Positions 5,968 to 23,679 of a stretch of DNA of 23,679 nucleotides are shown piece after piece. Within the stretch, counting starts at the first letter, position 1; each line of letters opens with the position of its first letter. Source of the stretch: a virus (lineage: Duplodnaviria > Heunggongvirae > Uroviricota > Caudoviricetes); the IMG/VR virus record IMGVR_UViG_2671180884_000031, one strand, 5' to 3'. The position numbers and the translations under genes were made by a program. The notes under the pieces are model-generated. The model saw nothing but the letters and a program-made list of their open reading frames with translations, searched no databases and was not told the DNA's origin.

Positions 5968-6021
5968 ACGGCGGTAGAGCAGTCACGGAGTAAAACTGAT
6001 ACTGCCAAACGTCACCAGAAA
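5968..6021 (-). ncRNA. dicF: DicF small regulatory RNA (ftsZ-targeting antisense sRNA)
   Basis: Minus strand reads TTTCTGGTGACGTTTGGCAGTATCAGTTTTACTCCGTGACTGCTCTACCGCCGTTTTT, near-identical to recalled K-12 DicF, ending in a GC stem plus T-run; lies ~170 bp upstream of dicB as in K-12. Confidence 0.8.
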
Positions 6022-9794: not shown

Positions 9795-9897
9795 TGTTAG
9801 GTATTTTAGACGTTACTAGATTAAAAAGCATTAGTTCAGGAGTGAATTGACATTCTCATTTTTCATGGCACAGGGTAGATCTGGCGTGGTTGTCCGC

Positions 9898-9918
9898 TTT
9901 GTGCCAGGAGCGGACGTT
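9898..9918. repeat. att-like repeat copy A (left boundary of cargo module 1)
   Basis: TGTGCCAGGAGCGGACGT (9900..9917) recurs exactly at 12452..12469 and in degenerate form at ~13998..14015. Confidence 0.5.
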
Positions 9919-10007
9919 GCTAATGGCATGATGTATGAACCAATGGAGAACCGATCATCTATACACATATAGATCCCTAACGAAAATATTGTTTTCACTA
10001 GCCCTGT

Positions 10008-10044
10008 AATGGAAGCGTTAATTTTATATTCTAACGCTTCCATT
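10008..10044. repeat. Perfect 13-bp inverted repeat (hairpin) downstream of the SDR gene
   Basis: AATGGAAGCGTTA (10008..10020), 11-nt loop, TAACGCTTCCATT (10032..10044); no flanking U-tract on either strand. Confidence 0.4.
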
Positions 10045-10096
10045 GAGCCTACCACTTTGGCAAAGCAATTCTTACACTTCAAAATAATGTGCTTTT

Positions 10097-10843
10097 TTAT
10101 TCAGCTAAATAACCGCCATCGATTGGATAAACGCCTCCGGTACAGAATGTAGAACTGTCTGACAGCAAGAACAATATGAAGTCTGCTATTTCCTGCATTT
10201 TTGCCATCCTTTTCATAGGGTGGCTATTTGCGAAACTACTTACAATATTTTCAGGGAACTCACTCATTCTTTGGGTTTGGACATAGCCCGGAGCGACTGC
10301 ATTGATTCGAATGCCTTGACATGCAAACTCTAGCGCTGCGGTTTGGGTTAAACCGATTATACCATGTTTAGCCACGGTGTAAGGTGCTAATCCAGGAATG
10401 CCAACCAGACCATTTACTGCAGATAAATTAACTATAGATCCACCAAACTTCATCATCTGGGGTATTTCATATTTTAGGCAGTGAAAAACGCCGCTCAATG
10501 AGGTAGCAATAACCTTATCCCAGTTTTCAACTGTCTGCTCTGTTATATTTTTACCATGTTCACCTGTTAAGCCTGCATTATTTACAGCATAATCAAGTCT
10601 GCCGAAATGTTTGATAACCTCATCTATCATTTGCCGTACTTGTTCGGGCTGTGACACATCACATCCGATCCCCATGGCTTGTTGTCCCTGTGAAGATAAT
10701 TGTTCCGCTTTTTGTTTAGCCTGTTCTGACGAGCGGGATACAATAACAACTTTTGCACCATGCTTATGTAATTGCTCTGCGACGGCCTCACCTATACCTG
10801 TAGTGCTTCCTGTTATAACGGCAATTTTATTCTGGAAATTCAT
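10097..10843 (-). CDS. SDR-family (short-chain dehydrogenase/reductase) oxidoreductase
   Basis: TGSTTGIG cofactor-binding motif, NNAG, catalytic YTVAKHG (YxxxK); start at ATG 10843 with a GGGGGTGG SD. Confidence 0.8.
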   Translation of the reverse strand: MNFQNKIAVITGSTTGIGEAVAEQLHKHGAKVVIVSRSSEQAKQKAEQLSSQGQQAMGIGCDVSQPEQVRQMIDEVIKHFGRLDYAVNNAGLTGEHGKNITEQTVENWDKVIATSLSGVFHCLKYEIPQMMKFGGSIVNLSAVNGLVGIPGLAPYTVAKHGIIGLTQTAALEFACQGIRINAVAPGYVQTQRMSEFPENIVSSFANSHPMKRMAKMQEIADFILFLLSDSSTFCTGGVYPIDGGYLAE

Positions 10844-10914
10844 AACCACCCCCTATGAAGTAGAATTGAGTCTTTCATCTGGGATAGTATACAAACCATC
10901 TGTGACAGTTTTTG

Positions 10915-11604
10915 TCAGTACTCTTTCCCCTCGCAGATCCCTTCTTTTATTCTCCATTTTTTCAATAAAATTGTCCTGCTTTCACTATAGTTGGAGTCAA
11001 GTTGCACAATATCTTCAATTTTGTCAGTTCTAAAATGACGAAAATCATTTCTCATCTCGCACCATGCAACCAAAAGCCAGCACGATTCCATGTATACCAA
11101 TCCGATGGGCCATATGACTCGTGAAGTGTAAGAATCTTTTTTATCACAATAATTTATTTTGATTTTCTTTCTTTTTTTTATAGCATTGCGAATGTCTTCA
11201 AAAAAAATCTCATTGTTTTCTGATGGACCGATCAGATAGGATTGACTCTCAATAAGATTTTTCAATTCACTGGGAATGACGGCGTGTATTTTCGCAAGCG
11301 CATTCTTTGCGGTAATTTTGAAATTATAATCTGTATTGTGCGATACCCAATTTAACCCAAGTGTAATAGCATTAATTTCTTCATGAGAAAGATTTAAGGG
11401 GGGCAAATGAAAGTCAGATTTAACAATATAACCAATTCCAGCACCACCTTCAATGCATACTCCTTGATGCTGCAGCGTTTTTATATCTCTGTAAAGGGAG
11501 CGTACACTTATTCCCAATCTTTCTGAGAGGATGGATGCTGTGATCGGATATCTTTGTGCCCTTAATATTTGTAGTAACTCGAGAAGTCTTTCTGTTCTAG
11601 TCAT
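10915..11604 (-). CDS. YafY-family transcriptional regulator (N-terminal HTH plus WYL-type ligand-binding domain)
   Basis: From the internal Met: MTRTERLLELLQILRAQRYPITASILSERLGISVRSLYRDIKTL..., a DeoR/YafY-type HTH followed by a WYL-like region; directly upstream of and co-oriented with the SDR gene. Confidence 0.6.
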   Translation of the reverse strand: MTRTERLLELLQILRAQRYPITASILSERLGISVRSLYRDIKTLQHQGVCIEGGAGIGYIVKSDFHLPPLNLSHEEINAITLGLNWVSHNTDYNFKITAKNALAKIHAVIPSELKNLIESQSYLIGPSENNEIFFEDIRNAIKKRKKIKINYCDKKDSYTSRVIWPIGLVYMESCWLLVAWCEMRNDFRHFRTDKIEDIVQLDSNYSESRTILLKKWRIKEGICEGKEY

Positions 11605-11822
11605 GTTGATAAATCCATTTTGAGGCGATTTCTTAAAGCATCTGTTAGATAAACATATTAGTACAAAGCAAGTGTACATGGCTAAGCTGAACTGCTACCG
11701 ATGATTAATACAGCGCTATGTTCGTAATGCGTACATAAGCGGTGATCATGAGTGTAAACATCCGCTTTTCGCTTATAAGGGACAACCATACTCAAATTTC
11801 CCACATTGCAGGAGATTTGAGT

Positions 11823-12425
11823 ATGAATACGTCACCGTGGAACAAAGACCGTATCATCGGCCAAAAAAGACCACTTCAGATATCTCATATCTGGGGGATC
11901 CGAATCCGGCTTGAACTGGAAGGTAAAACGCGCGATTTAGCTCTGTTCAATATGGCCCTGGACAGTAAGCTTCGAGGCTGTGATCTGGTCAAACTCAAAG
12001 TATCGGATGTGGCATATGGTAGTTCGGTTTCAAGCAGAGCAACGGTGTTGCAACAGAAAACCGGTAGCCCTGTGCAATTCGAGATAACCAAAGGGACAAG
12101 AGAAGCTGTTGCTGCATTGATAAAGCTTGGCAATTTGCACAGTAAAGACTTCTTGTTTCGGTCTCGGGTCGGAACTAACCAGCACATTTCAACCCGGCAA
12201 TACAACCGAATCTTTCATGGGTGGATAGAAAAACTTGGTCTCGAAGGTTCACTTTACAGCACACATTCAATGAGAAGAACAAAACCTTACCTGATCTACA
12301 AGAAAACCAAGAATCTCCGGGTGATCCAACTTCTGTTGGGTCATAAGAAACTGGAAAGCACAGTCCGTTATCTGGGCATTGAAGTCGATGATGCGTTAGA
12401 GATCTCTGAATCGATTGAAGTCTAA
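11823..12425 (+). CDS. Short tyrosine site-specific recombinase (~200 aa, phage-integrase family catalytic domain)
   Basis: AGGAG SD before ATG 11823; C-terminal HSMRRT...LLGHKKLESTVRYL carries the R/H-x-x-R ... Y catalytic signature. Confidence 0.65.
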   Translation: MNTSPWNKDRIIGQKRPLQISHIWGIRIRLELEGKTRDLALFNMALDSKLRGCDLVKLKVSDVAYGSSVSSRATVLQQKTGSPVQFEITKGTREAVAALIKLGNLHSKDFLFRSRVGTNQHISTRQYNRIFHGWIEKLGLEGSLYSTHSMRRTKPYLIYKKTKNLRVIQLLLGHKKLESTVRYLGIEVDDALEISESIEV

Positions 12426-12433
12426 GGTTGTCA

Positions 12434-12469
12434 GGGCTGCAACAGCAGCCCTGTGCCAGGAGCGGACGT
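12434..12469. repeat. att-like repeat copy B: hairpin GGGCTGC-AACA-GCAGCCC plus TGTGCCAGGAGCGGACGT core
   Basis: Begins 9 nt after the recombinase stop codon; hairpin plus a core identical to copy A. Confidence 0.5.
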
Positions 12470-12576
12470 CTAGTTCGCTGAACCACAAAAAGTCGTTTCT
12501 AGTTATATTACTGGCTCATTAGTATCTTTATGCGATAATATTTCATACAACCAAAATTATGATGAAGGGAGTTCAA

Positions 12577-13698
12577 ATGGCAATTACGGTCTATTCTCGT
12601 ACATTCAAAAAGGAATTGGACATGGTTCAATTGTTAAACCATTACTCATCAGATAACGCACTCAATTTCAGTGATTTCAAGGAATTTGTTGCCTTTGATG
12701 CAGAGTGCCCAATTTGCAATGTAAGCGGTGCGATTGTTGTTTCAGAAGGTTATTCGAAAAGAACAAATAAGATAGTCAGCCAATCTCATTTTGCGTTTAG
12801 AACAAAAGACGGAACTGATGCACACAAAGTATTTTGCGATCATTACAGTGGTGATGATAAGCAAATAGATTCATCAAGGGATGGTTTTATAAAATTCGGC
12901 ACCTCAGGTTCTGAGATTACAAGTATAATTCGCGAGCTTGTATGTAGAGGTATTGAACATGATGAGTTCAATCAGGAAGATATTCGAAACATGCGGCAAT
13001 GGTTTACAGAATTACGCCAGTCAGGCACTTTTTCTGTTAACTATAGCCCTCACATGATCAATCTAATAAGGGCCAGCATGTATTCCCGTAAGGGAGAAAG
13101 TAAATATATTGTAGATGAAGAGAGGAAAAATAAATCTTGGTTTGATATAAACGATGAAGTGTATCGTTCGTTAAGATTCAAATATCCATCATTGATGATC
13201 GACATGACTAATGAAAATAATTCTGTTTTCTATAATCTTGTGAATAGTACCACATTTACTAAACAAGCACATCGATTAGTAGCACGAGATCGAGGTTATC
13301 AGGTTTATGATAGAAGGTTGCTTAAAGAAAAATATGAAGCAACGATAAGAGTTGCACAAAAAATAACCAGGCATCACGAATTTCTTTTTAGGAAAATCAG
13401 GGGTATATCCGCTGTTAAAAAAAACAACCCCCTTTTGGCTGTATCTGCCTTGCTTCTTTTTGTCTCGGACTGGAATGAAACAACTGCAATCAACAAATTC
13501 ATCAAATTGTGTGGTGTAGGGAAATCTAAAAATAATGATGAGGGGAATGTAATTGGCTTAAATCCCTTTATTCATTACGATGTCTGGAATGTTATTCATC
13601 AACTTAAGGATTTAATGGTTACACTTCCAGACTTCTCAAATCTTGATGAAGAATTTGACAGAGAAAAATCCAGATTAATTGAACTTTACAAGCTCTAA
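12577..13698 (+). CDS. Hypothetical protein, 373 aa, AT-rich cargo gene; candidate accessory/anti-phage function
   Basis: GAAGGGAG SD 5 nt before ATG 12577; N-terminal CPIC ... HKVFCDH cluster suggests a metal-binding site; no family recognised by eye. Confidence 0.7.
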   Translation: MAITVYSRTFKKELDMVQLLNHYSSDNALNFSDFKEFVAFDAECPICNVSGAIVVSEGYSKRTNKIVSQSHFAFRTKDGTDAHKVFCDHYSGDDKQIDSSRDGFIKFGTSGSEITSIIRELVCRGIEHDEFNQEDIRNMRQWFTELRQSGTFSVNYSPHMINLIRASMYSRKGESKYIVDEERKNKSWFDINDEVYRSLRFKYPSLMIDMTNENNSVFYNLVNSTTFTKQAHRLVARDRGYQVYDRRLLKEKYEATIRVAQKITRHHEFLFRKIRGISAVKKNNPLLAVSALLLFVSDWNETTAINKFIKLCGVGKSKNNDEGNVIGLNPFIHYDVWNVIHQLKDLMVTLPDFSNLDEEFDREKSRLIELYKL

Positions 13699-13740
13699 CA
13701 TAAACTAGCAGGCTGCGTATACAGTCTGCTAATTTTCATA

Positions 13741-13970
13741 GTAAAGACTTCATGCTTCAGTCTCGAGTTGGAGCTATCCGTCACACATCACCCAGGCAAT
13801 TCAACCGAAATTTTTCATGGGGGGTAGAGAAGTTTTGTCTCGAAGATTTGCTTTACAGCATACTAATCATTGAACCTCTGTTGAACCATAAGAAACTGGC
13901 AAGCACAATCCGTTGCTTGGGCATTGAATTCGACGATGCGTCGTATAGCTCTGACTTGAACAAAACATAA
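13741..13970 (+). pseudogene. Degenerate duplicate of the tyrosine recombinase 3' end (remnant)
   Basis: About 75-80% nucleotide identity to 12142..12425 with an internal deletion; translation ...SRVGAIRHTSPRQFNRNF...LLNHKKLASTIRCLGIEFDDA parallels the recombinase C-terminus. Confidence 0.6.
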
Positions 13971-13978
13971 GGTTTTTA

Positions 13979-14015
13979 GGGCTGCAACAGCACCTCTGTG
14001 TCATAGGCGGAAGTT
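13979..14015. repeat. att-like repeat copy C (degenerate)
   Basis: GGGCTGCAACAGCACCTCTGTGTCATAGGCGGAAGT parallels copy B in the same position relative to the recombinase remnant. Confidence 0.45.
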
Positions 14016-14311
14016 AACAAACATTAAAATCTCTAAATCTGTAGGGATCAGACTCCTTCTATAAAAGGATACTGTTCATATCCTTAGTTGTATATAGGTG
14101 TGTTTAGAGTATTAGGATGCTAGTTTTGAAAATTAATTTTTTAAACATATTGAATTTTTTAAGAATTGGGAATAGTGTATAGCTTTGTCATGGCGGATTT
14201 TTTCTCTTCAAGTATTTATTTGAACACTACTTCTTGCACCTGCAAGGTTACAATATCGTGTAAATTTGTTCACAAAGACATAGATTATAATTTTTACTTA
14301 AAGGAAATTCA

Positions 14312-15565
14312 ATGTCAAAAAATCTCCCGGTTTTATTAAGCTCGCCATCAACAACTAATTTTCCTGCAACAGTTAATACTGAAATAGAATTCCTTTCGCA
14401 AGCTAGAAAGTTGTTAGATTCTGGCTTCCCTGATCATGCTCTTTTAGATATATGGAATGCATCCATTCATAATCTTAGGCGGCGAATTGAGGCTTATGGT
14501 TTAGACTTATTCCTTTCCGCAATAAAGGATGATAGTGGTCGTAAAAAATATGATAAAGATGGTGAAACAATAAACGAGAGATGGTCAGGTGTAGATGATT
14601 TAGTGCTAATAAGTGGAGCCACCAAATTAGGGGTTCTGCATAAGAAAGCTGGAAAATCATTAGAAATGATCAATTGGATGAGAAACCATGCCTCTCCAGC
14701 CCATGCAAGTGATAGTAAAGTAGAGTCTGAGGATGTGTTTGCTTTGGCTCTTATGCTCCAGAAGAATTTATTCGAATCTGATATGCCAGACCCTGGACAT
14801 TCGCCATCTGGATTATTTGAACCCATAAAAAAATCTGAACTATCAATTGAGAGCATAGACTTACTTAAAGATCAAATAAGAGCATTTAAGCAAGCTGATA
14901 TAAGAATAACATTTGGATTTTTATTGGATTTAATAACTAAGGGGGAAAATCCTGCTTATGTTAATGCTAGCAAGTTGTTTGAACAAGCATGGGAAAGATC
15001 TAATGATGACCTTAAAAAAACAGCGGGGGAAAGATATCACTCATTTATGCTGGAGCCCGAATCGGATACAAGTGAGGATAAAGGAGCAAAAATAAGAATT
15101 TTAGAGACTTTAGTAAAAGTTAATGGTGTGAAATTTATACCTGATGCTGCTAGGGCAAGTTTATACAGACATGCGGTTAAACAGCTAGCTAAAGCTAAGG
15201 ATACATCTTACGGCTGGAATGATGAAGAAAGAGCAGCCAAGGCACTTATACAATTTGGACCTCATGTTCCATCTATTGCTTTTGAAGATGTATATCAAGA
15301 AATACTTACTGTTTGGGTGGGGAATTACTGGGGAAGATCTGATGCACATTTAGTACTTCAACCATTTTTAGATGTGTTAAATAGTAATCAATTGATGGCT
15401 CTCTCACGGTTGTTCGTGGAGAATGAAAGAGCAAATTCAGAACTGGTGTCATCAAGGCCCAAAAGAAGAGCAATAGAATTACTTGAGATAATAAAAAATA
15501 ATCTAACAATTCAAGCAAGCATTGATGAAATTGATAGGATTATTTCTGAAATTGATAAAATGTAA
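14312..15565 (+). CDS. Hypothetical protein, 417 aa, with HEPN-like R-x6-H motif; candidate abortive-infection/defence protein
   Basis: AAGGAAA SD before ATG 14312; helical N-terminal region with WMRNHASPAH (R-x6-H) resembling the HEPN active-site motif; AT-rich; own terminator downstream. Confidence 0.7.
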   Translation: MSKNLPVLLSSPSTTNFPATVNTEIEFLSQARKLLDSGFPDHALLDIWNASIHNLRRRIEAYGLDLFLSAIKDDSGRKKYDKDGETINERWSGVDDLVLISGATKLGVLHKKAGKSLEMINWMRNHASPAHASDSKVESEDVFALALMLQKNLFESDMPDPGHSPSGLFEPIKKSELSIESIDLLKDQIRAFKQADIRITFGFLLDLITKGENPAYVNASKLFEQAWERSNDDLKKTAGERYHSFMLEPESDTSEDKGAKIRILETLVKVNGVKFIPDAARASLYRHAVKQLAKAKDTSYGWNDEERAAKALIQFGPHVPSIAFEDVYQEILTVWVGNYWGRSDAHLVLQPFLDVLNSNQLMALSRLFVENERANSELVSSRPKRRAIELLEIIKNNLTIQASIDEIDRIISEIDKM

Positions 15566-15577
15566 TTTATTTGCAAT

Positions 15578-15610
15578 TAAGCCATGCTTTTTAGGTGGCT
15601 TATTTTTTTT
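15578..15610 (+). terminator. Rho-independent terminator after the 417-aa gene
   Basis: AAGCCA ... TGGCTT stem followed by an 8-T run, 13 nt after the stop codon. Confidence 0.55.
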
Positions 15611-15882
15611 GAATCTACTACTTATATTGATATTAGCAATGTAATTGCTAAAGTATTCCTAGCCCACTATTCATCTAAATATGGTTGTCGAAAGGCCCGC
15701 TTCTCGCTCAAAGCGGACTAGAAGGTTAGCTTGTGTCGGACTTTGCGTATTAAATGACTAGTGGTTGAGCCCCATTTCCACAGAAAAAATCAGAGAAACT
15801 ATACCCAATAGTTGTATTGAATCACTGACGAGACAGCCTCATATTCATCAGGACTGGTGTACGTCCAATACAGGAGGTTGTG

Positions 15883-15972
15883 GTGCTGGTTCTCAAATGT
15901 GCGCTGGCTATTACGGCTGTAATGGCGATTTATTGTCTTGCTATTGTTCTTATGGATCGCCTTTCTGACTGA
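15883..15972 (+). CDS. Candidate small hydrophobic peptide (29 aa, GTG start), type-I-toxin-like
   Basis: Canonical AGGAGG SD (15872..15877), 5-nt spacer, GTG; product (M)LVLKCALAITAVMAIYCLAIVLMDRLSD is a single predicted TM helix. Overlaps a 67-aa Cys/Gly-rich ORF in another frame that is judged spurious. Confidence 0.3.
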   Translation: MLVLKCALAITAVMAIYCLAIVLMDRLSD

Positions 15973-16183
15973 TTTCACATTGGCGAGGTAACGGTAGTTA
16001 AGTAGAATGGCTGCGGGTGCTTGAGGCTATCTGCCTCGGGCATGAACACCAACGGCAGATAGAGAAAAGCCCCAGTTAACATTACGCGTCCTGCAAGACG
16101 CTTAACATTAATCTGAGGCCAATTTCATGCTAGACATATGTAGGTTAGCCTCTTACGTGCCGAAAGGCAAGGAGAAGCAGGCT

Positions 16184-16339
16184 ATGAAGCAGCAAAAGGC
16201 GATGTTAATCGCCCTGATCGTCATCTGTTTAACCGTCATAGTGACGGCACTGGTAACGAGGAAAGACCTCTGCGAGGTACGAATCCGAACCGGCCAGACG
16301 GAGGTCGCTGTCTTCACAGCTTACGAACCTGAGGAGTAA
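16184..16339 (+). CDS. hokD: Hok-family small membrane toxin HokD (RelF)
   Basis: MKQQKAMLIALIVICLTVIVTALVTRKDLCEVRIRTGQTEVAVFTAYEPEE matches recalled HokD; AAGGAGAA SD; an in-frame upstream ATG at 16127 could give an extended form. Confidence 0.8.
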   Translation: MKQQKAMLIALIVICLTVIVTALVTRKDLCEVRIRTGQTEVAVFTAYEPEE

Positions 16340-16407
16340 GAGACCCGGCGAGGGAGAAATCCCTCGCCACCTCTGATGTGGCAGGCATCCTCAACGCACC
16401 CGCACTT

Positions 16408-16439
16408 AACCCGCTTCGGCGGGTTTTTGTTTTTATTTT
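16408..16439 (+). terminator. Rho-independent terminator after hokD
   Basis: CCCGC-TTCG-GCGGG hairpin followed by TTTTTGTTTTTATTTT; a second 8-bp hairpin (GGCGAGGG/CCCTCGCC) lies at 16347..16368. Confidence 0.6.
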
Positions 16440-16555
16440 CAACGCGTTTGAAGTTCTGGACGGTGCCGGAATAGAATCAAAAATACTTAAGTAGCGCGCA
16501 GGGATAAGAGGGATGGTCCCTTAAAGGGGAGAGCTAATTATCCGGAAGGATTCTG

Positions 16556-16807
16556 ATGATGAACATCGAAGAACTGCGTAAAATTTTTTGTGAAGATGGC
16601 CTCTATGCTGTGTGCGTTGAAAATGGAAATCTTGTTAGTCATTACCGCATTATGTGTTTGCGAAAGAATGGGGCTGCGTTAATTAATTTTGTGGATGGTC
16701 GAGTGACAGACGGATTTATCTTGCGCGAAGGTGAGTTTGTCACTTCATTACAGGCACTGAAAGAGATCGGAATAAAAGCAGGCTTTTCAGCTTTTGCAGA
16801 AGAATAA
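16556..16807 (+). CDS. rem: Qin-prophage protein Rem (83 aa)
   Basis: MMNIEELRKIFCEDGLYAVCVENGNLVSHYRIMCLRKNGAALINFVDGRVTDGF...; size and position after hokD as recalled for K-12 Qin. Confidence 0.6.
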   Translation: MMNIEELRKIFCEDGLYAVCVENGNLVSHYRIMCLRKNGAALINFVDGRVTDGFILREGEFVTSLQALKEIGIKAGFSAFAEE

Positions 16808-16873
16808 ACTCATCTACAATCTTGCGCGGGGCTGAACTCCCGCTGAGTAACACCGTGCCACCGGAGAAAACCG

Positions 16874-17152
16874 ATGGCACGCAACGTAAAATATTACAAT
16901 TCTGATAATTCGCCCGTTCTTGTCTGCACGCACGAGCGGTATTCTCACGCATTCAAGTCTGAATGGTTCCAACACCCTCCATGCACTGAAGAGCAGGCTG
17001 AATGGATAATTCAGTGTTACCGCAGGCGCGGATACGAGGTTAAGAAAGCCCTTAGCCTCGACTACCGTCACTGGATAATCTCAGTCAGATTGCCTTACTC
17101 CGAACGCCCACCACGTGCGTCCCGCACTTTCCAGCAACGGATCTGGAGGTAA
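16874..17152 (+). CDS. Hypothetical protein (possibly the N-terminal part of a frameshifted Q-like gene)
   Basis: 92-aa ORF overlapping the next ORF by 38 bp in a different frame. Confidence 0.3.
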   Translation: MARNVKYYNSDNSPVLVCTHERYSHAFKSEWFQHPPCTEEQAEWIIQCYRRRGYEVKKALSLDYRHWIISVRLPYSERPPRASRTFQQRIWR

Positions 17153-17708
17153 CGTGCGGGTATTACTTAGACCTGTTCTGGTGCCTGAGCTTGGGCTGGT
17201 GGTCCTTAAGCCGGGCCGTGAATCCATACAGATATTTCATAATCCTCGAGTGCTGGTGGAACCGGAACCAAAAAGCATGCGTAATCTGCCATCCGGAGTC
17301 GTTCCTGCCGTTCGCCAGCCGCTGGCGGAAGACAAAACATTGCTGCCGTTTTTTAGTAACGAACGGGTGATTCGTGCTGCTGGCGGTGTTGGCGCATTGT
17401 CTGACTGGCTATTACGTCATGTTACATCCTGCCAGTGGCCTAATGGCGATTACCATCACTCTGAAACAGTCATTCACCGTTATGGTACCGGCGCAATGGT
17501 GTTGTGTTGGCACTGCGACAACCAACTGCGTGACCAGACATCGGAATCACTGGAGCTGCTTGCTCAACAAAATCTGACAGCATGGGTGATTGACGTCATC
17601 CGTCACGCAATAAGCGGTACGCAGGAGCGGGAATTATCTTTGGCTGAATTATCCTGGTGGGCGGTCTGCAATCAGGTGGTGGATGCACTACCTGAGGCTG
17701 TATCTTAA
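17115..17708 (+). CDS. Late-gene antiterminator Q-like protein (zinc-finger), candidate
   Basis: C-terminal [10 protein letters not shown] ... CWHCDNQ cysteine/histidine cluster; sits upstream of the csp genes and the lysis cassette, as quuQ does in Qin. Confidence 0.4.
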
Positions 17709-17756
17709 ATGGGGCAATAGAGATATTGAATCTCATCCCGGGATAAACATTGGCAG

Positions 17757-17933
17757 TTGAAGGTCCACGCGAACCATTTATCCAGCAAAATTCCACGCGT
17801 AATCCTGTGGTAATTTCTTCTGCATCTCGAAGATTGAGAGCTGAAACGTGAAGCTGGGCATCGATACGCCATCGGATGGGAATATAAGACCTTTGCTGCT
17901 TTTGTAGTCAAAGTTTTTGACAATTCCTGTCAT
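17757..17933 (-). pseudogene. cspF: cspF-like cold-shock gene remnant (frameshifted, stop lost)
   Basis: From ATG 17933: [22 protein letters not shown], then a one-nt frame change, then ...[42 protein letters not shown]; both parts parallel recalled CspF. Confidence 0.45.
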
Positions 17934-18243
17934 TTTAGGGGACAGAAAAACTCCTTAATACTGATAACCTGGTGCACCATACACACGTTCCTGGAGAAAA
18001 CTACTTTTTTGATAGGGTTGAAGGTGGCTGGATGTCTAAAATAAACATTGCTTCATATGTTCAACTATGAGTTAATGACTGTGTCGGTTTGAAGAACAGA
18101 CGATATACGAAGTAGTTTACTAAAGCAGTTCTCATTTCAGGTGTTATTCACTTATTCCTTCTTTGAGTCTCTCCAATTAAGTACGAAGTCGTTTCTGTTA
18201 TGCAAACCATTTATGCCGAAAGGCTCAAGTTAAGGAATGTAGA

Positions 18244-18459
18244 ATGTCAAATAAAATGACTGGTTTAGTAAAATGGTTTAACGCTGATAAAGGTTTCGGC
18301 TTTATTTCTCCTGTTGATGGTAGTAAAGATGTGTTTGTGCATTTTTCTGCGATTCAGAATGATAATTATCGAACCTTATTTGAAGGTCAAAAGGTTACCT
18401 TCTCTATAGAGAGTGGTGCTAAAGGTCCTGCAGCAGCAAATGTCATCATTACTGATTAA
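18244..18459 (+). CDS. cspB: Cold-shock protein CspB-like (71 aa)
   Basis: [53 protein letters not shown]...; cold-shock-domain RNP motifs; long 5' UTR typical of csp genes. Confidence 0.8.
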
Positions 18460-18740
18460 AATTCATCGCTCGTCTGTATACGATAACGAAGAAGGCTGAT
18501 GCCTGAGTAGAGATACGGACAGAGTAGTGAATATTGGATCTCTTTAATAAAAAGTAAGGAGGTCCAATACATGAAACAATGGCCAGCATATTTGGCAAAA
18601 TCTTAATCAGGAAAAGTATGCTAACCATTGTGGTGAAGTGCAGGTTTGCTGCATGAATAGTTTCACAGCAGAAGCTAACTGCTGGCATCGCAAAACAAAG
18701 TGCGTAAGTGGATGACTCCCACAAAAAGCACCACAATCTC

Positions 18741-18766
18741 AAACCCGCTCAGGCGGGTTTTTTATT
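18741..18766 (+). terminator. Rho-independent terminator (candidate tR'-like late-region terminator)
   Basis: Perfect AAACCCGC-TCAG-GCGGGTTT hairpin followed by TTTATT, ~450 bp upstream of the holin gene. Confidence 0.6.
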
Positions 18767-18822
18767 ATCTGCTTTAAATATATTATTAAAATATAAAAAA
18801 TACTTGTTACTAATAAAATCAA

Positions 18823-18993
18823 TCAGGCTACAGCTTTAAGATTTGTCTGGAATACTTTGTTGCAATGAGGGCAGATCAAAAGGGCACCTTTTTGTACTCT
18901 TGAAAAACTGTGTTCTGACTCTTGGGTGCAGTTTGGGCAGGAACATTTAACGAGATAATTACGGCGTGATTTTGAGTCTTTACGTTCTGACAT
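18823..18993 (-). CDS. Hypothetical small zinc-ribbon protein (56 aa)
   Basis: MSERKDSKSRRNYLVKCSCPNCTQESEHSFSRVQKGALLICPHCNKVFQTNLKAVA with two CxxC pairs; AGGAAAAG SD upstream of ATG 18993. Confidence 0.4.
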   Translation of the reverse strand: MSERKDSKSRRNYLVKCSCPNCTQESEHSFSRVQKGALLICPHCNKVFQTNLKAVA

Positions 18994-19212
18994 AGGCTTT
19001 TCCTGTATAAATGGCCGTATACAGTACACTAAATATGAAAACATTTCTCGTATTATTATTTTATATATGACTTTCTTTCAAAATAATTACCCACATTTTT
19101 AATGTGTATGTTTTTTTAGCGCCGTTGAGAACAACGTGTGCTGTCAAAACTACCCCGTAGACTCCGATCTTTTCAAACATATTGCACCATCCGTGTACAT
19201 CGGGGTGAGGAT

Positions 19213-19428
19213 ATGAAATCAATGGATAAGTTAACAACAGGTGTTGCCTATGGCACATCGGCGGGTAATGCTGGTTTCTGGGCATTGCAGTTACTCGATA
19301 AAGTAACTCCGTCACAGTGGGCTGCAATCGGTGTGCTGGGTAGCCTGGTTTTTGGCCTGCTGACGTATCTGACAAATCTTTATTTCAAGATTAAAGAAGA
19401 CAGGCGTAAGGCTGCGAGAGGAGAATAA
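19213..19428 (+). CDS. essQ: Class II (pin)holin, phage 21 S-like, with dual-start motif
   Basis: [71 protein letters not shown]; two TM segments and a basic C-terminus; GGTGAGGA SD. Confidence 0.8.
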
Positions 19429-19739
19429 TCCAATGACTCAAGACTATGAACTGGTTGTGAAAGGAGTCCGTAATTTTGAGAATAAAGTTACGGTAACTGT
19501 AGCCTTACAGGACAAAGAACGCTTTGACGGTGAAATTTTTGGCCTGGATGTCGCCATGGACCGTGTTGAAGGAGCTACGCTGGAGTTTTATGAGGCAGCA
19601 GCCAGAATGAGCGTCCGGCAAGTCTTCCTGGAAGTAGCAGAAAAATTGTCAGAAAAGTTGAGTCTTATCTGCAGCATCAGTACTCCTTTAAGATTGAAAA
19701 TCCTGCCAATAAGCACGAGCGTCCTCATCATAAATATCT

Positions 19740-20767
<1,028 letters not shown>

Positions 20768-21129
20768 GGTAATATTAAATCGGAACATTTACATCGCGGA
20801 ATGTAAAATTTAAATAAAAAGGACTCTTCCATGAGCCAAAATTCCTGAAATCTTAAGGGTAAGATAAAAGGTCTTAATCAGAATGACACGTTTTATTAAT
20901 AAATAAAGCTATTCTTTCATTGCTGTGTTTTTCTTTACAAAAGTAATCCTTGCTATGGGTGGTTAATCATGCGTTAATGGTGTTCTGGTTTGTTACAAAT
21001 TTATCTGAAGCAGTCATTGTTATAATTTTATTATTTGTACCTCTTGAGATTTCCTTGTTGGTTTTTCTCTCTGATATTTTTTTTCGGACCATTCTGCCCA
21101 AGGGCTAATTTCTTCAAAAGGTAATAATT

Positions 21130-21342
21130 ATGTCTAACAAAATGACTGGTTTAGTAAAATGGTTTAACCCTGAAAAAGGTTTTGGTTTCATCACGCCGAA
21201 AGATGGCAGCAAAGATGTGTTTGTCCATTTCTCAGCAATTCAGAGCAACGATTTCAAAACATTAACTGAGAATCAGGAAGTTGAATTTGGTATTGAGAAC
21301 GGACCTAAAGGTCCTGCCGCTGTTCATGTAGTGGCGCTTTGA
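21130..21342 (+). CDS. cspI: Cold-shock protein CspI (70 aa)
   Basis: [70 protein letters not shown] matches recalled CspI. Confidence 0.85.
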
Positions 21343-21548
21343 GGTAGACAATATTACAAACCATATTCACTTTAGATGCCCGTGTTGTCATGGTTCCCAG
21401 TATAGAACATCATCTTTTGATGTTTCTGACATGAATCCTTTCGGGGCAAAATGTATCTTTTGTAAATCAATGATGATTACATTTGATAATATTTCACAAT
21501 ACTTAAATGCTAGCCGTCTGTCGTTGGATTTAAAAAAGTGAAAATGAA

Positions 21549-22189: not shown

Positions 22190-22340
22190 TGTATTCAATA
22201 ATAAAATTTATCCATAAACCTCGTTTTTACGGGGTTTTGTTATATTTGAATGGTTCCGAATATCTAAATCACAATTGTTGATGGTTTTTATTAAACCAAT
22301 GCAGTCCGGCTCAGGAGTGAGAGAAGCCGGACGTTATGGT

Positions 22341-22751
22341 TTAGCGTGGTAAGATCTGTGTAGTTTTCTGGATGCTTTCAGTAAATAGTAATGAATTATC
22401 AAAGGTATAGTAATATCTTTTTTGTTCGTGGATATTTGTAACCCACCGAAAAACTCCTGCTTTAGCAAGGTTTCTTCTGTATTCCTGAAATGTGATCTCT
22501 CTGGATTTCAGCTTATTAGAGGTCGTTTCTATAAGATGCCTATCCTTTGAAAATTTGACAGACACAATGTTTTTTAGGCCCTTTAATAACACTGTATTAT
22601 CATTTTTTAATACAATATGAACATTCTCTGTGGCTAAATAGTAAATGTAATGTGAGACATTGTGACGTTTTAGCTCAGAATAAAACCATTGATAGTTTAA
22701 ATCGTTTCGAACTTTATCAAATATTTGTTTAAAAATGACTACCTGATCCAT
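22341..22751 (-). CDS. ydfO: YdfO-like prophage protein (136 aa)
   Basis: ORF 22341..22766 with likely start at ATG 22751 (GGAAGG SD); size and position match recalled K-12 YdfO. Confidence 0.55.
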
Positions 22752-22808
22752 AGATAAACCTTCCATGTGATATGAGGGGGCGTAGTCTGCACGATTATCT
22801 AAATTGCT

Positions 22809-23042
22809 TCAATCTGGTCTGACCTGTTTTCTGAGCAATTCAGTAATGTCACTCTTTTCTTTGTTTGCTTCAGAAGAAACTCTTTTTTCTGAGCACAGTC
22901 TCCGGCGGCAGGCTTCAATGACCCAGGCTGAGAAATTCCCGGACCCTTTTTGCTCAAGAGCGATGTTAATTTGTTCAATCATTTGGTTAGGAAAGCGGAT
23001 GTTGCGGGTTGTTGTTCTGCGGGTTCTGTTCTTCGTTGACAT
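22809..23042 (-). CDS. ynfO: YnfO-like small prophage protein (77 aa)
   Basis: 77-aa basic ORF adjacent to ydfO and upstream of cos, as in Qin. Confidence 0.5.
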   Translation of the reverse strand: MSTKNRTRRTTTRNIRFPNQMIEQINIALEQKGSGNFSAWVIEACRRRLCSEKRVSSEANKEKSDITELLRKQVRPD

Positions 23043-23241
23043 GAGGTTGCCCCGTATTCAGTGTCGCTGATTTGTATTGTCTGAAGTTGTTTTTACGTTA
23101 AGTTGATGCGGATCAATTAATACGATATCTGCGTCATAATTGATTGTTTGACGTGGTTTGATGGCGTAGATGCACGTTGTGACATGCAGATGATAATTAT
23201 TATCATTTTGCGGGTCCTTTCCGGCGATCCGACAGGTTACG

Positions 23242-23253
23242 GGGCGGCGACCT
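23242..23253. other. cosN cohesive-end site, lambda-type (GGGCGGCGACCT)
   Basis: GTTACG-GGGCGGCGACCT-CGCGGGTTTTCGCTATTTATGAAAATTTTCCGG is near-identical to the recalled lambda cos junction; Nu1 starts 178 bp downstream. Confidence 0.85.
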
Positions 23254-23430
23254 CGCGGGTTTTCGCTATTTATGAAAATTTTCCGGTTTAAGGCGTTTCC
23301 GTTCTTCTTCGTTGTAACTTAATGTTTTTATTTAAAATACCCCCTGAAAAGAAAGGAAACGACAGGTGCTGAAAACGAGCTTTTGGGCCTCTGTCGTTTC
23401 CTTTCTCTGTTTTTGGCCGTGGAATGAACA

Positions 23431-23679
23431 ATGGAAGTCAACAAAAAGCAGCTGGCTGACATTTTCGGTGCGAGTATCCGTACCATTCAGAACTGGCAGG
23501 AACAGGGAATGCCCGTTCTGCGAGGCGGTGGCAAGGGTAATGAGGTGCTTTATGACTCTGCCGCCGTTATAAGATGGTATGCCGAAAGGGATGCTGAAAT
23601 TGAGAACGAAAAGCTGCGCCGGGAAGTTGAAGAACTGCGGCAGGCCAGCGAGGCAGATCTCCAGCCAGGGACTATTGAG
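23431..23679 (+). CDS. nohA: Terminase small subunit Nu1 (5' part; continues beyond the window)
   Basis: MEVNKKQLADIFGASIRTIQNWQEQGMPVLRGGGKGNEVLYDSAAVIRWYAERDAEIENEKLRREVEELRQA... is near-identical to recalled lambda Nu1. Confidence 0.9.
   Translation, partial: MEVNKKQLADIFGASIRTIQNWQEQGMPVLRGGGKGNEVLYDSAAVIRWYAERDAEIENEKLRREVEELRQASEADLQPGTIE

Follow-up and report, generated by a model that had tools for sequence, protein, structure and literature searches.

Does the right-hand end of the DNA stretch analysed here (23,679 nucleotides of IMG/VR record IMGVR_UViG_2671180884_000031; hereafter, the window) carry a cos site with the packaging specificity of phage lambda, and to what kind of element does such a site belong? 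In the reading that we favour, at a probability of about 90%, it is a cos with lambda packaging specificity, followed by the first 83 codons of Nu1, and both come from a full-length lambdoid prophage of ~47-49 kb, a member of the Qin family inserted between rspB and ydfJ. A lambda-type cos with Nu1 in an undeleted Qin-family prophage is already known, well understood and very common; the evidence that places this locus among such elements, and the alternatives that had to be weighed, are set out below.

Alignment to lambda and subsites of the cos region

When the right and left ends of lambda (NC_001416) were joined and aligned locally to positions 22701-23679 of the window, 771 of 801 columns were identical (96.3%), with one 1-base gap. 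The aligned stretch, window 22880-23679, corresponds to lambda 48141-48502 followed by 1-439, window position 23242 being lambda base 1, and blastn returned the same blocks. This bears out the preliminary description, which had called the cosQ-cosN-cosB region and the start of Nu1 near-identical to lambda. That description had located the similarity at 23100-23679; the sequence is indeed there, with a likeness well above anything due to chance, but homology to lambda starts further to the left, at 22880, inside ynfO. The segment homologous to the lambda right end (22880-23241, plus strand; lambda 48141-48502), which begins inside the ynfO coding sequence, is 94.8% identical over 362 bp, and identity reaches 100% over the 87 bp of window 23226-23312 (lambda 48487-71) that contain cosN, I2 and R3. 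A megablast search of positions 23100-23679 against 50,697 phage records yielded 87 records at E = 0, of which 40 cover at least 80% of the query; identity was 96.0% for lambda records and 97-98.8% for several lambdoid phages of recent deposition.

Each of the defined subsites, namely cosQ, cosN with its 12-base cohesive end, I2, R3, the core of I1, R2 and R1, is base-identical to its lambda counterpart. The packaging-termination signal cosQ (GGGTCCT) lies on the plus strand at 23212-23218 and is the same in all six comparison sequences and in lambda at 48473-48479, which we take to be the exact cosQ coordinates of Wieczorek and Feiss (2001). The interval from cosQ to cosN aligns with lambda without a gap, so the lambda spacing is kept; cosQ is known as a highly conserved 7-bp element (PMC4669245). 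The nicking site cosN (23237-23258, plus strand), of about 22 bp, is 100% identical to lambda 48498-17 and contains, at 23242-23253, the 12-base cohesive-end sequence GGGCGGCGACCT, again identical to that of lambda; its nicks are predicted between 23241 and 23242 on the top strand and between 23253 and 23254 on the bottom strand. The I2 spacer, an A/T-rich bent segment separating cosN from cosB, follows at 23259-23291 (plus strand; lambda bp 18-50), the size of cosN and the extent of I2 being those defined in PMC4856287.

Within cosB, the predicted principal binding site of Nu1 (TerS), R3, occupies 23294-23309 on the plus strand (CGTTTCCGTTCTTCTT; lambda bp 53-68), and its bases 55-63, which are the contact bases (PMC9026076), are the same as in lambda. 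The predicted Nu1 binding site R2 lies in inverted orientation at 23349-23364 (minus strand; lambda bp 108-123), and the predicted accessory site R1 at 23395-23410 (plus strand; about lambda bp 155-170). This arrangement was also recovered de novo, by a repeat search made independently of lambda, which found CGTTTCCGTTCT at 23294, a 92% direct copy at 23395 and an inverted copy at 23349; the R3 and R2 arms are 92% complementary and 42 nt apart, and R1 is a direct copy of R3 at a spacing of 101 bp. An R3, an inverted R2 and an R1 form the layout given for complex cosB sites by Feiss and colleagues (PMC4669245, PMC9026076). No indel separates the window from lambda between cosN and R2, and the cosN-R3 spacing is the same. 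The R sites, whose divergence the preliminary description had named as the outcome that would speak against it, are thus identical to those of lambda. Between R3 and R2, the predicted IHF bending site I1 was placed at 23315-23342. The IHF consensus WATCAANNNNTTR has a one-mismatch match there, on the minus strand at 23320-23332; as the scan of the whole window gave 37 matches against 40.7 expected, i.e. not above chance, and is not significant by itself, I1 was positioned by its identity to lambda bp 74-101.

A 47-aa open reading frame (23148-23291, plus strand) lies over cosQ and cosN and appears in several phage records as a "hypothetical protein" (FIG00642806). Because it overlies packaging signals, it is almost certainly not a gene.

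The differences from lambda fall between the subsites. Across the 238-bp segment lambda 48446-182, which the Feiss laboratory cloned as a carrier of cosQ, cosN and cosB (PMC4856287), we counted 12 substitutions or indels, none of them in a defined subsite, and 11 of the 12 are common to Escherichia phage PhiR42_1. The spacer between R2 and R1 is 1 bp shorter than in lambda; since the shorter form is common to all six other sequences compared, lambda is the outlier in this respect. One cos variant of the window, a C>T change at lambda position 72, between R3 and I1, is absent from the six aligned sequences; an exact 33-mer carrying it occurs in 8 contigs of IMG/VR, a distribution that says nothing on packaging.

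Nu1 and packaging specificity

The 5' part of Nu1 (nohA), the terminase small subunit, starts with an ATG at 23431 and runs on the plus strand to the window edge at 23679, covering codons 1-83 of 181 and including the winged helix-turn-helix DNA-binding domain. Eighty-two of the 83 residues are those of lambda, the sole change being K48R, and the Pfam family Phage_Nu1 (PF07471) is matched over profile positions 1-83 of 164 with E = 9.1e-51 (score 172 bits; cut-off 30). Both the recognition helix (residues 17-24, RTIQNWQE, with Q20 and E24 among them) and the wing (residues 31-39), for whose roles we rely on PMC4669245 and PMC9026076, are unchanged relative to lambda.

As lambda, phage 21 and N15 have a common cosQ and a near-identical cosN, neither of these elements sets specificity (PMC4669245), and a site of phage 21 or N15 specificity could in principle lie behind a lambda-like cosN. 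What distinguishes the three types is R3 base pairs 56, 58 and 59 in combination with TerS residues 20 and 24 (PMC4669245, PMC9026076). Here R3 is base-identical to that of lambda, base pairs 56, 58 and 59 included, and Nu1 carries glutamine at position 20 and glutamate at position 24; moreover, the N15 type has a single R sequence, whereas this cosB is complex, with three. Specificity of the 21 or N15 type is therefore extremely improbable, and the R sites together with the Nu1 residues led us to reject both. Still less credence, indeed next to none, can be given to the idea that the site belongs to a phage-inducible chromosomal island (PICI) hijacking a helper terminase. PICI cos sites do have a lambda-like cosQ and cosN at equal spacing, but they are devoid of R sequences and are followed by rpp and not by terS (PMC9026076), whereas here R3, R2 and R1 are all found, the next gene is Nu1, and the element is a ~48-kb prophage with full morphogenetic genes; both the R sites and Nu1 contradict a PICI cos, which was rejected. 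What is found at this locus is a cos of lambda specificity with a lambda-type complex cosB: cosQ, a 12-base end in cosN, and R3, I1, inverted R2 and R1 at lambda distances.

Because the subsites and the DNA-binding domain of Nu1 match lambda, a lambda-like mechanism is expected. Following late-gene expression, a Nu1 dimer would occupy R3 and the inverted R2, brought face to face by IHF bending at I1, and gpA anchored in this way would nick cosN 12 bases apart, at the top- and bottom-strand positions given above, to leave 12-base 5' overhangs. The Nu1/gpA complex would then keep the cosB end, dock on the prohead portal and pump DNA rightward, until the next cosQ-cosN would end packaging. These steps, from docking at cosB to termination at cosQ and cosN, are modelled on lambda (PMC4669245, PMC4856287, PMC9026076), and we infer that cos would be cut and packaged in this strain; the deposition, as a phage genome, of a phage with a near-identical cos (PhiR42_1) lends this indirect support.

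The downstream module in the closest genomes

As the window breaks off within Nu1, after codon 83, the genes further downstream were read in sister genomes. The closest are 2018-166 and STEC2018-553, two Swiss STEC genomes that match the window at 100% in two blocks, and 2012EL-2448, at 99.9%; none of the genomes compared, these three included, matches the window over its whole length. In all three, Nu1 is untruncated, with 181 aa and 2 differences from lambda (K48R and L132I), which speaks against the second outcome, a truncated Nu1 downstream, that the preliminary description had regarded as refuting. Nu1 overlaps the A gene, whose 641-aa product gpA shows 6-7 conservative substitutions relative to lambda, and A is followed by W, B, C, D, E, FI, FII, Z, U, V, G, T, H, M, L, K, I, J, lom, stf, tfaQ, pinQ and ydfK. 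Downstream identity to lambda is 97.5% over the first 11.5 kb and 93.8% over the next 6.3 kb. With its untruncated Nu1, intact gpA and full lambda-like set of head and tail genes, the packaging module has been kept in these genomes; its function in the window's prophage, which had been proposed from the window alone, is putative. Measured from att to att, the prophage of STEC2018-553 is about 48.76 kb long, which falls in the packageable size range of lambda.

In 2018-166, frameshifts are annotated in gpA and in six late genes (FI, Z, U, V, G and a DUF1327 gene). Comparison with STEC2018-553 traced the differences in gpA, C, FI, Z, U, V and G (2018-166 positions 10753-19220) to indels of a single base or of 1-3 bp, several of them in homopolymer runs, and RefSeq calls most of these genes frameshifted. 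Because the indels are very short and several lie in homopolymer runs, the frameshifts are probably errors of the (long-read) assembly and not real pseudogenes.

An undeleted Qin prophage

The window opens with rspB, and the prophages of the sister genomes end at a truncated ydfJ; the integration site is therefore that of Qin in E. coli K-12, between rspB and ydfJ. Together with this site, the gene order dicB-dicA-dicC ... cspB-ess-rrrQ-rzpQ-cspI-gnsB-ydfO-ynfO-nohA identifies the element as Qin. K-12 Qin resembles the window in its chromosomal site, its gene order from dicB to ynfO, the boundary of its lambda homology and its cos, and matches it at 97.6-99.3% in five blocks, with 98.9% over the 5.9 kb that end at the window end. 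Its homology to lambda likewise starts at lambda 48141 and carries the same six variants at lambda 48145-48166.

The preliminary description had set the window against K-12 Qin as a prophage left with only a degraded nohA. This contrast is not upheld: K-12 has the same cos, and its nohA (b1548) equals Nu1 for 176 of 181 residues before continuing into 13 foreign codons. That fusion results from a deletion in K-12 Qin extending from lambda-equivalent base 720, at the start of A, to within stf, homology to lambda ending at base 719. K-12 Qin further differs in having relBE, flxA and other genes where the window's prophage has a different accessory island, and in its degraded intQ, int and xis being whole in the window's prophage. 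The prophage of the window is thus undeleted Qin, and K-12 Qin is its deletion derivative.

It remained to be considered whether the locus might instead be a newly formed mosaic private to this prophage, in which Qin-type early and lysis genes had recently been recombined onto a lambda packaging module. Nucleotide likeness to lambda is indeed confined, within the window, to 22322-22825 (ydfO, 84%) and 22880-23679, and the 11.5 kb downstream are lambda-like as stated above, so that the earlier view of the prophage as mosaic stands in relation to lambda. The junction itself is not new. K-12 Qin has an identical left boundary, the six variants and the same cos, and its Nu1 agrees as far as the point of deletion; the longer block from ynfR/ynfN through ydfO-ynfO-cos-Nu1-A is present in 1722 of 5426 complete E. 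coli genomes at 80% query coverage or more; and the chromosomal site is the Qin site. A recent private mosaic is accordingly very improbable, and a new junction was rejected, the boundary being common with K-12 Qin and ancestral to the Qin family. We read the element as undeleted Qin, because K-12 Qin has an equal cos, left boundary and site and has lost what lies downstream.

Over the 389 bp of lambda 48167-53, which span cos, identity between K-12 Qin and lambda is 100%; these sequences suggest that lambda and K-12 Qin once exchanged DNA at cos, fitting the cos-stimulated recombination of PMC3945230. At 13 positions to the left of cosN, K-12 Qin has the lambda base and the window, like other phages, has another. 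Kotani and colleagues (1992, Nucleic Acids Res 20:3357) reportedly showed that lambda terminase cleaves cos-like sites of the K-12 chromosome, and the names nohA and nohB are said to derive from that work.

Several other features of the window concern its accessory genes. The last of them before cos is ynfO (22809-23042, minus strand), of the YlcI/YnfO family; it matches Pfam DUF3950 with E = 2.7e-21 and is annotated as ynfO in the closest genomes. The left edge of the lambda homology falls inside it (window 22880-23042, minus strand; lambda 48141-48303), and lambda consequently has, left of cos, the N-terminal part of a YlcI/YnfO-like frame that is unannotated in NC_001416. The accessory island, at about 9800-16170, occupies the place of relBE, flxA and ydfV in K-12 Qin and PhiR42_1 and encodes an SDR oxidoreductase, a WYL-HTH regulator (PADLOC WYL, E = 4e-61), a 227-aa integrase fragment, and proteins of 379 aa (phrog_12525) and 417 aa (phrog_27609). 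A PADLOC scan of the island recognised only the WYL regulator and no known defence system. Rfam matches comprise cspA-type thermoregulator leaders upstream of cspB and cspI (18083-18475 and 20984-21369, plus strand), the sok antitoxin RNA next to hokD (16015-16189, plus strand) and the DicF sRNA (5969-6020, minus strand).

A missing Q gene and the question of late expression

Between positions 17704 and 17705, the window is without 1401 bp that 2018-166, STEC2018-553, 2012EL-2448 and K-12 all carry. The missing segment takes in ydfU from its middle to its 3' end, all of the Q antiterminator gene (ydfT/quuQ) and a further 136 bp closed by a terminator-like hairpin. No direct repeat flanks the junction, which occurs in none of the 5426 complete E. 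coli genomes and was not found among GTDB species representatives; the gap may be a deletion private to the window or an artefact of it. Taken at face value, an element missing its Q antiterminator gene would be without the activator of its late operon, and late expression driven by the prophage itself would be doubtful.

This raises the reading that cos and Nu1, intact in sequence, belong to a silent relic, which would have no late expression or particles of its own and whose cos would at most be cut in trans by a terminase of lambda specificity, supplied by another prophage or by an infecting phage. Besides the loss of Q and of the sequence just downstream, several observations point this way: in the closest genomes, the annotation gives a frameshift in ydfR (DUF1327) and makes cspF a partial pseudogene, likewise frameshifted (19434-19744 and 17744-17946 in one of them), the accessory island interrupts the early region, and STEC2018-553 has a second cos-Nu1-A match. 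K-12 Qin and DLP12, moreover, are defective prophages that still hold such cos sites, and nu1 of DLP12 is functional when recombined into lambda (PMC3945230). Against these stand the closest complete genomes, in which Q and every late gene are intact, and the 1401-bp gap, which no other genome shows and which may be artefactual; the window also has an O-like replication initiator (E = 7.6e-93) and a cII-like gene, the prophage is of lambda-like length, and PhiR42_1, of the same architecture, was deposited as a phage. On balance we consider a silent relic unlikely, though a possibility of some weight; it agrees with the data provided that Q has really been lost, and it leaves the identity of the cos site, a lambda-specificity cos in a Qin-family prophage, unchanged. 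In the window, the ydfR frame (19433-19822) extends to 129 aa.

A more specific variant, which we regard as rather improbable, is that, given a real Q loss, this would be a Qin prophage complete in structure yet silent by itself, with a fully lambda-specific cos that serves solely in trans, through the terminase of a co-resident prophage of the STEC host. If true, the site would be a hotspot of chromosomal double-strand breaks and recombination beside an intact spare head-and-tail module, and the formation of hybrid phages would be favoured, including hybrids with Stx phages having the same cos.

Distribution and comparison with known systems

The cos-Nu1-A block is found, at a coverage of at least 80%, in 3258 of 5426 complete E. 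coli genomes (~60%), mostly with 95-99% identity. The present analysis thus records a lambda-specificity block in about three fifths of complete E. coli genomes, which matters little beyond annotation; this prevalence offers a substrate for the recombination, stimulated by cos, that is known to take place between resident prophages and lambdoid phages.

Compared with phage lambda itself (NC_001416, bp 48446-48502 and 1-736), the locus agrees in its subsites, in the spacing from cosN to R3 and in the recognition helix and wing of Nu1. It differs to the left of cos, where lambda has bor and open reading frames and the window has the Qin-type genes cspI, ynfN, gnsB, ydfO and ynfO.

Among deposited phage genomes, the element resembles Escherichia phage PhiR42_1 (PV340562.1; 48,668 bp, host ECOR13; sisters among the PhiR, mEp and 2H10 lambdoid phages), which carries int, xis, exo, DicA/DicC, O, Q and lysis genes, followed by cspI-ynfN-gnsB-ydfO-ynfO-cos-Nu1-A...J-lom-stf-tfa-pin. 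The 580-bp region at 23100-23679 is 98.8% identical between the two, and 15.6 kb of the window match at 97-99%. In contrast to the window, PhiR42_1 has a G54A change in R3 and is without the C>T change at lambda position 72; it carries Q, relBE and flxA, and its accessory region is different. A literature search found no publication on the PhiR phages; that they were deposited as genomes of phages, with the host named, suggests that they are viable.

The defective prophage DLP12 of K-12 likewise has a lambda-type cos with all subsites, together with a full 181-aa homologue of Nu1 (nohD), the nu1 gene that, as cited above, works once recombined into lambda. It is distinguished from the present locus by another chromosomal site, by the flanking genes bor, ybcV, ybcW and ylcI, by a G53T change in R3 and by a truncated A.
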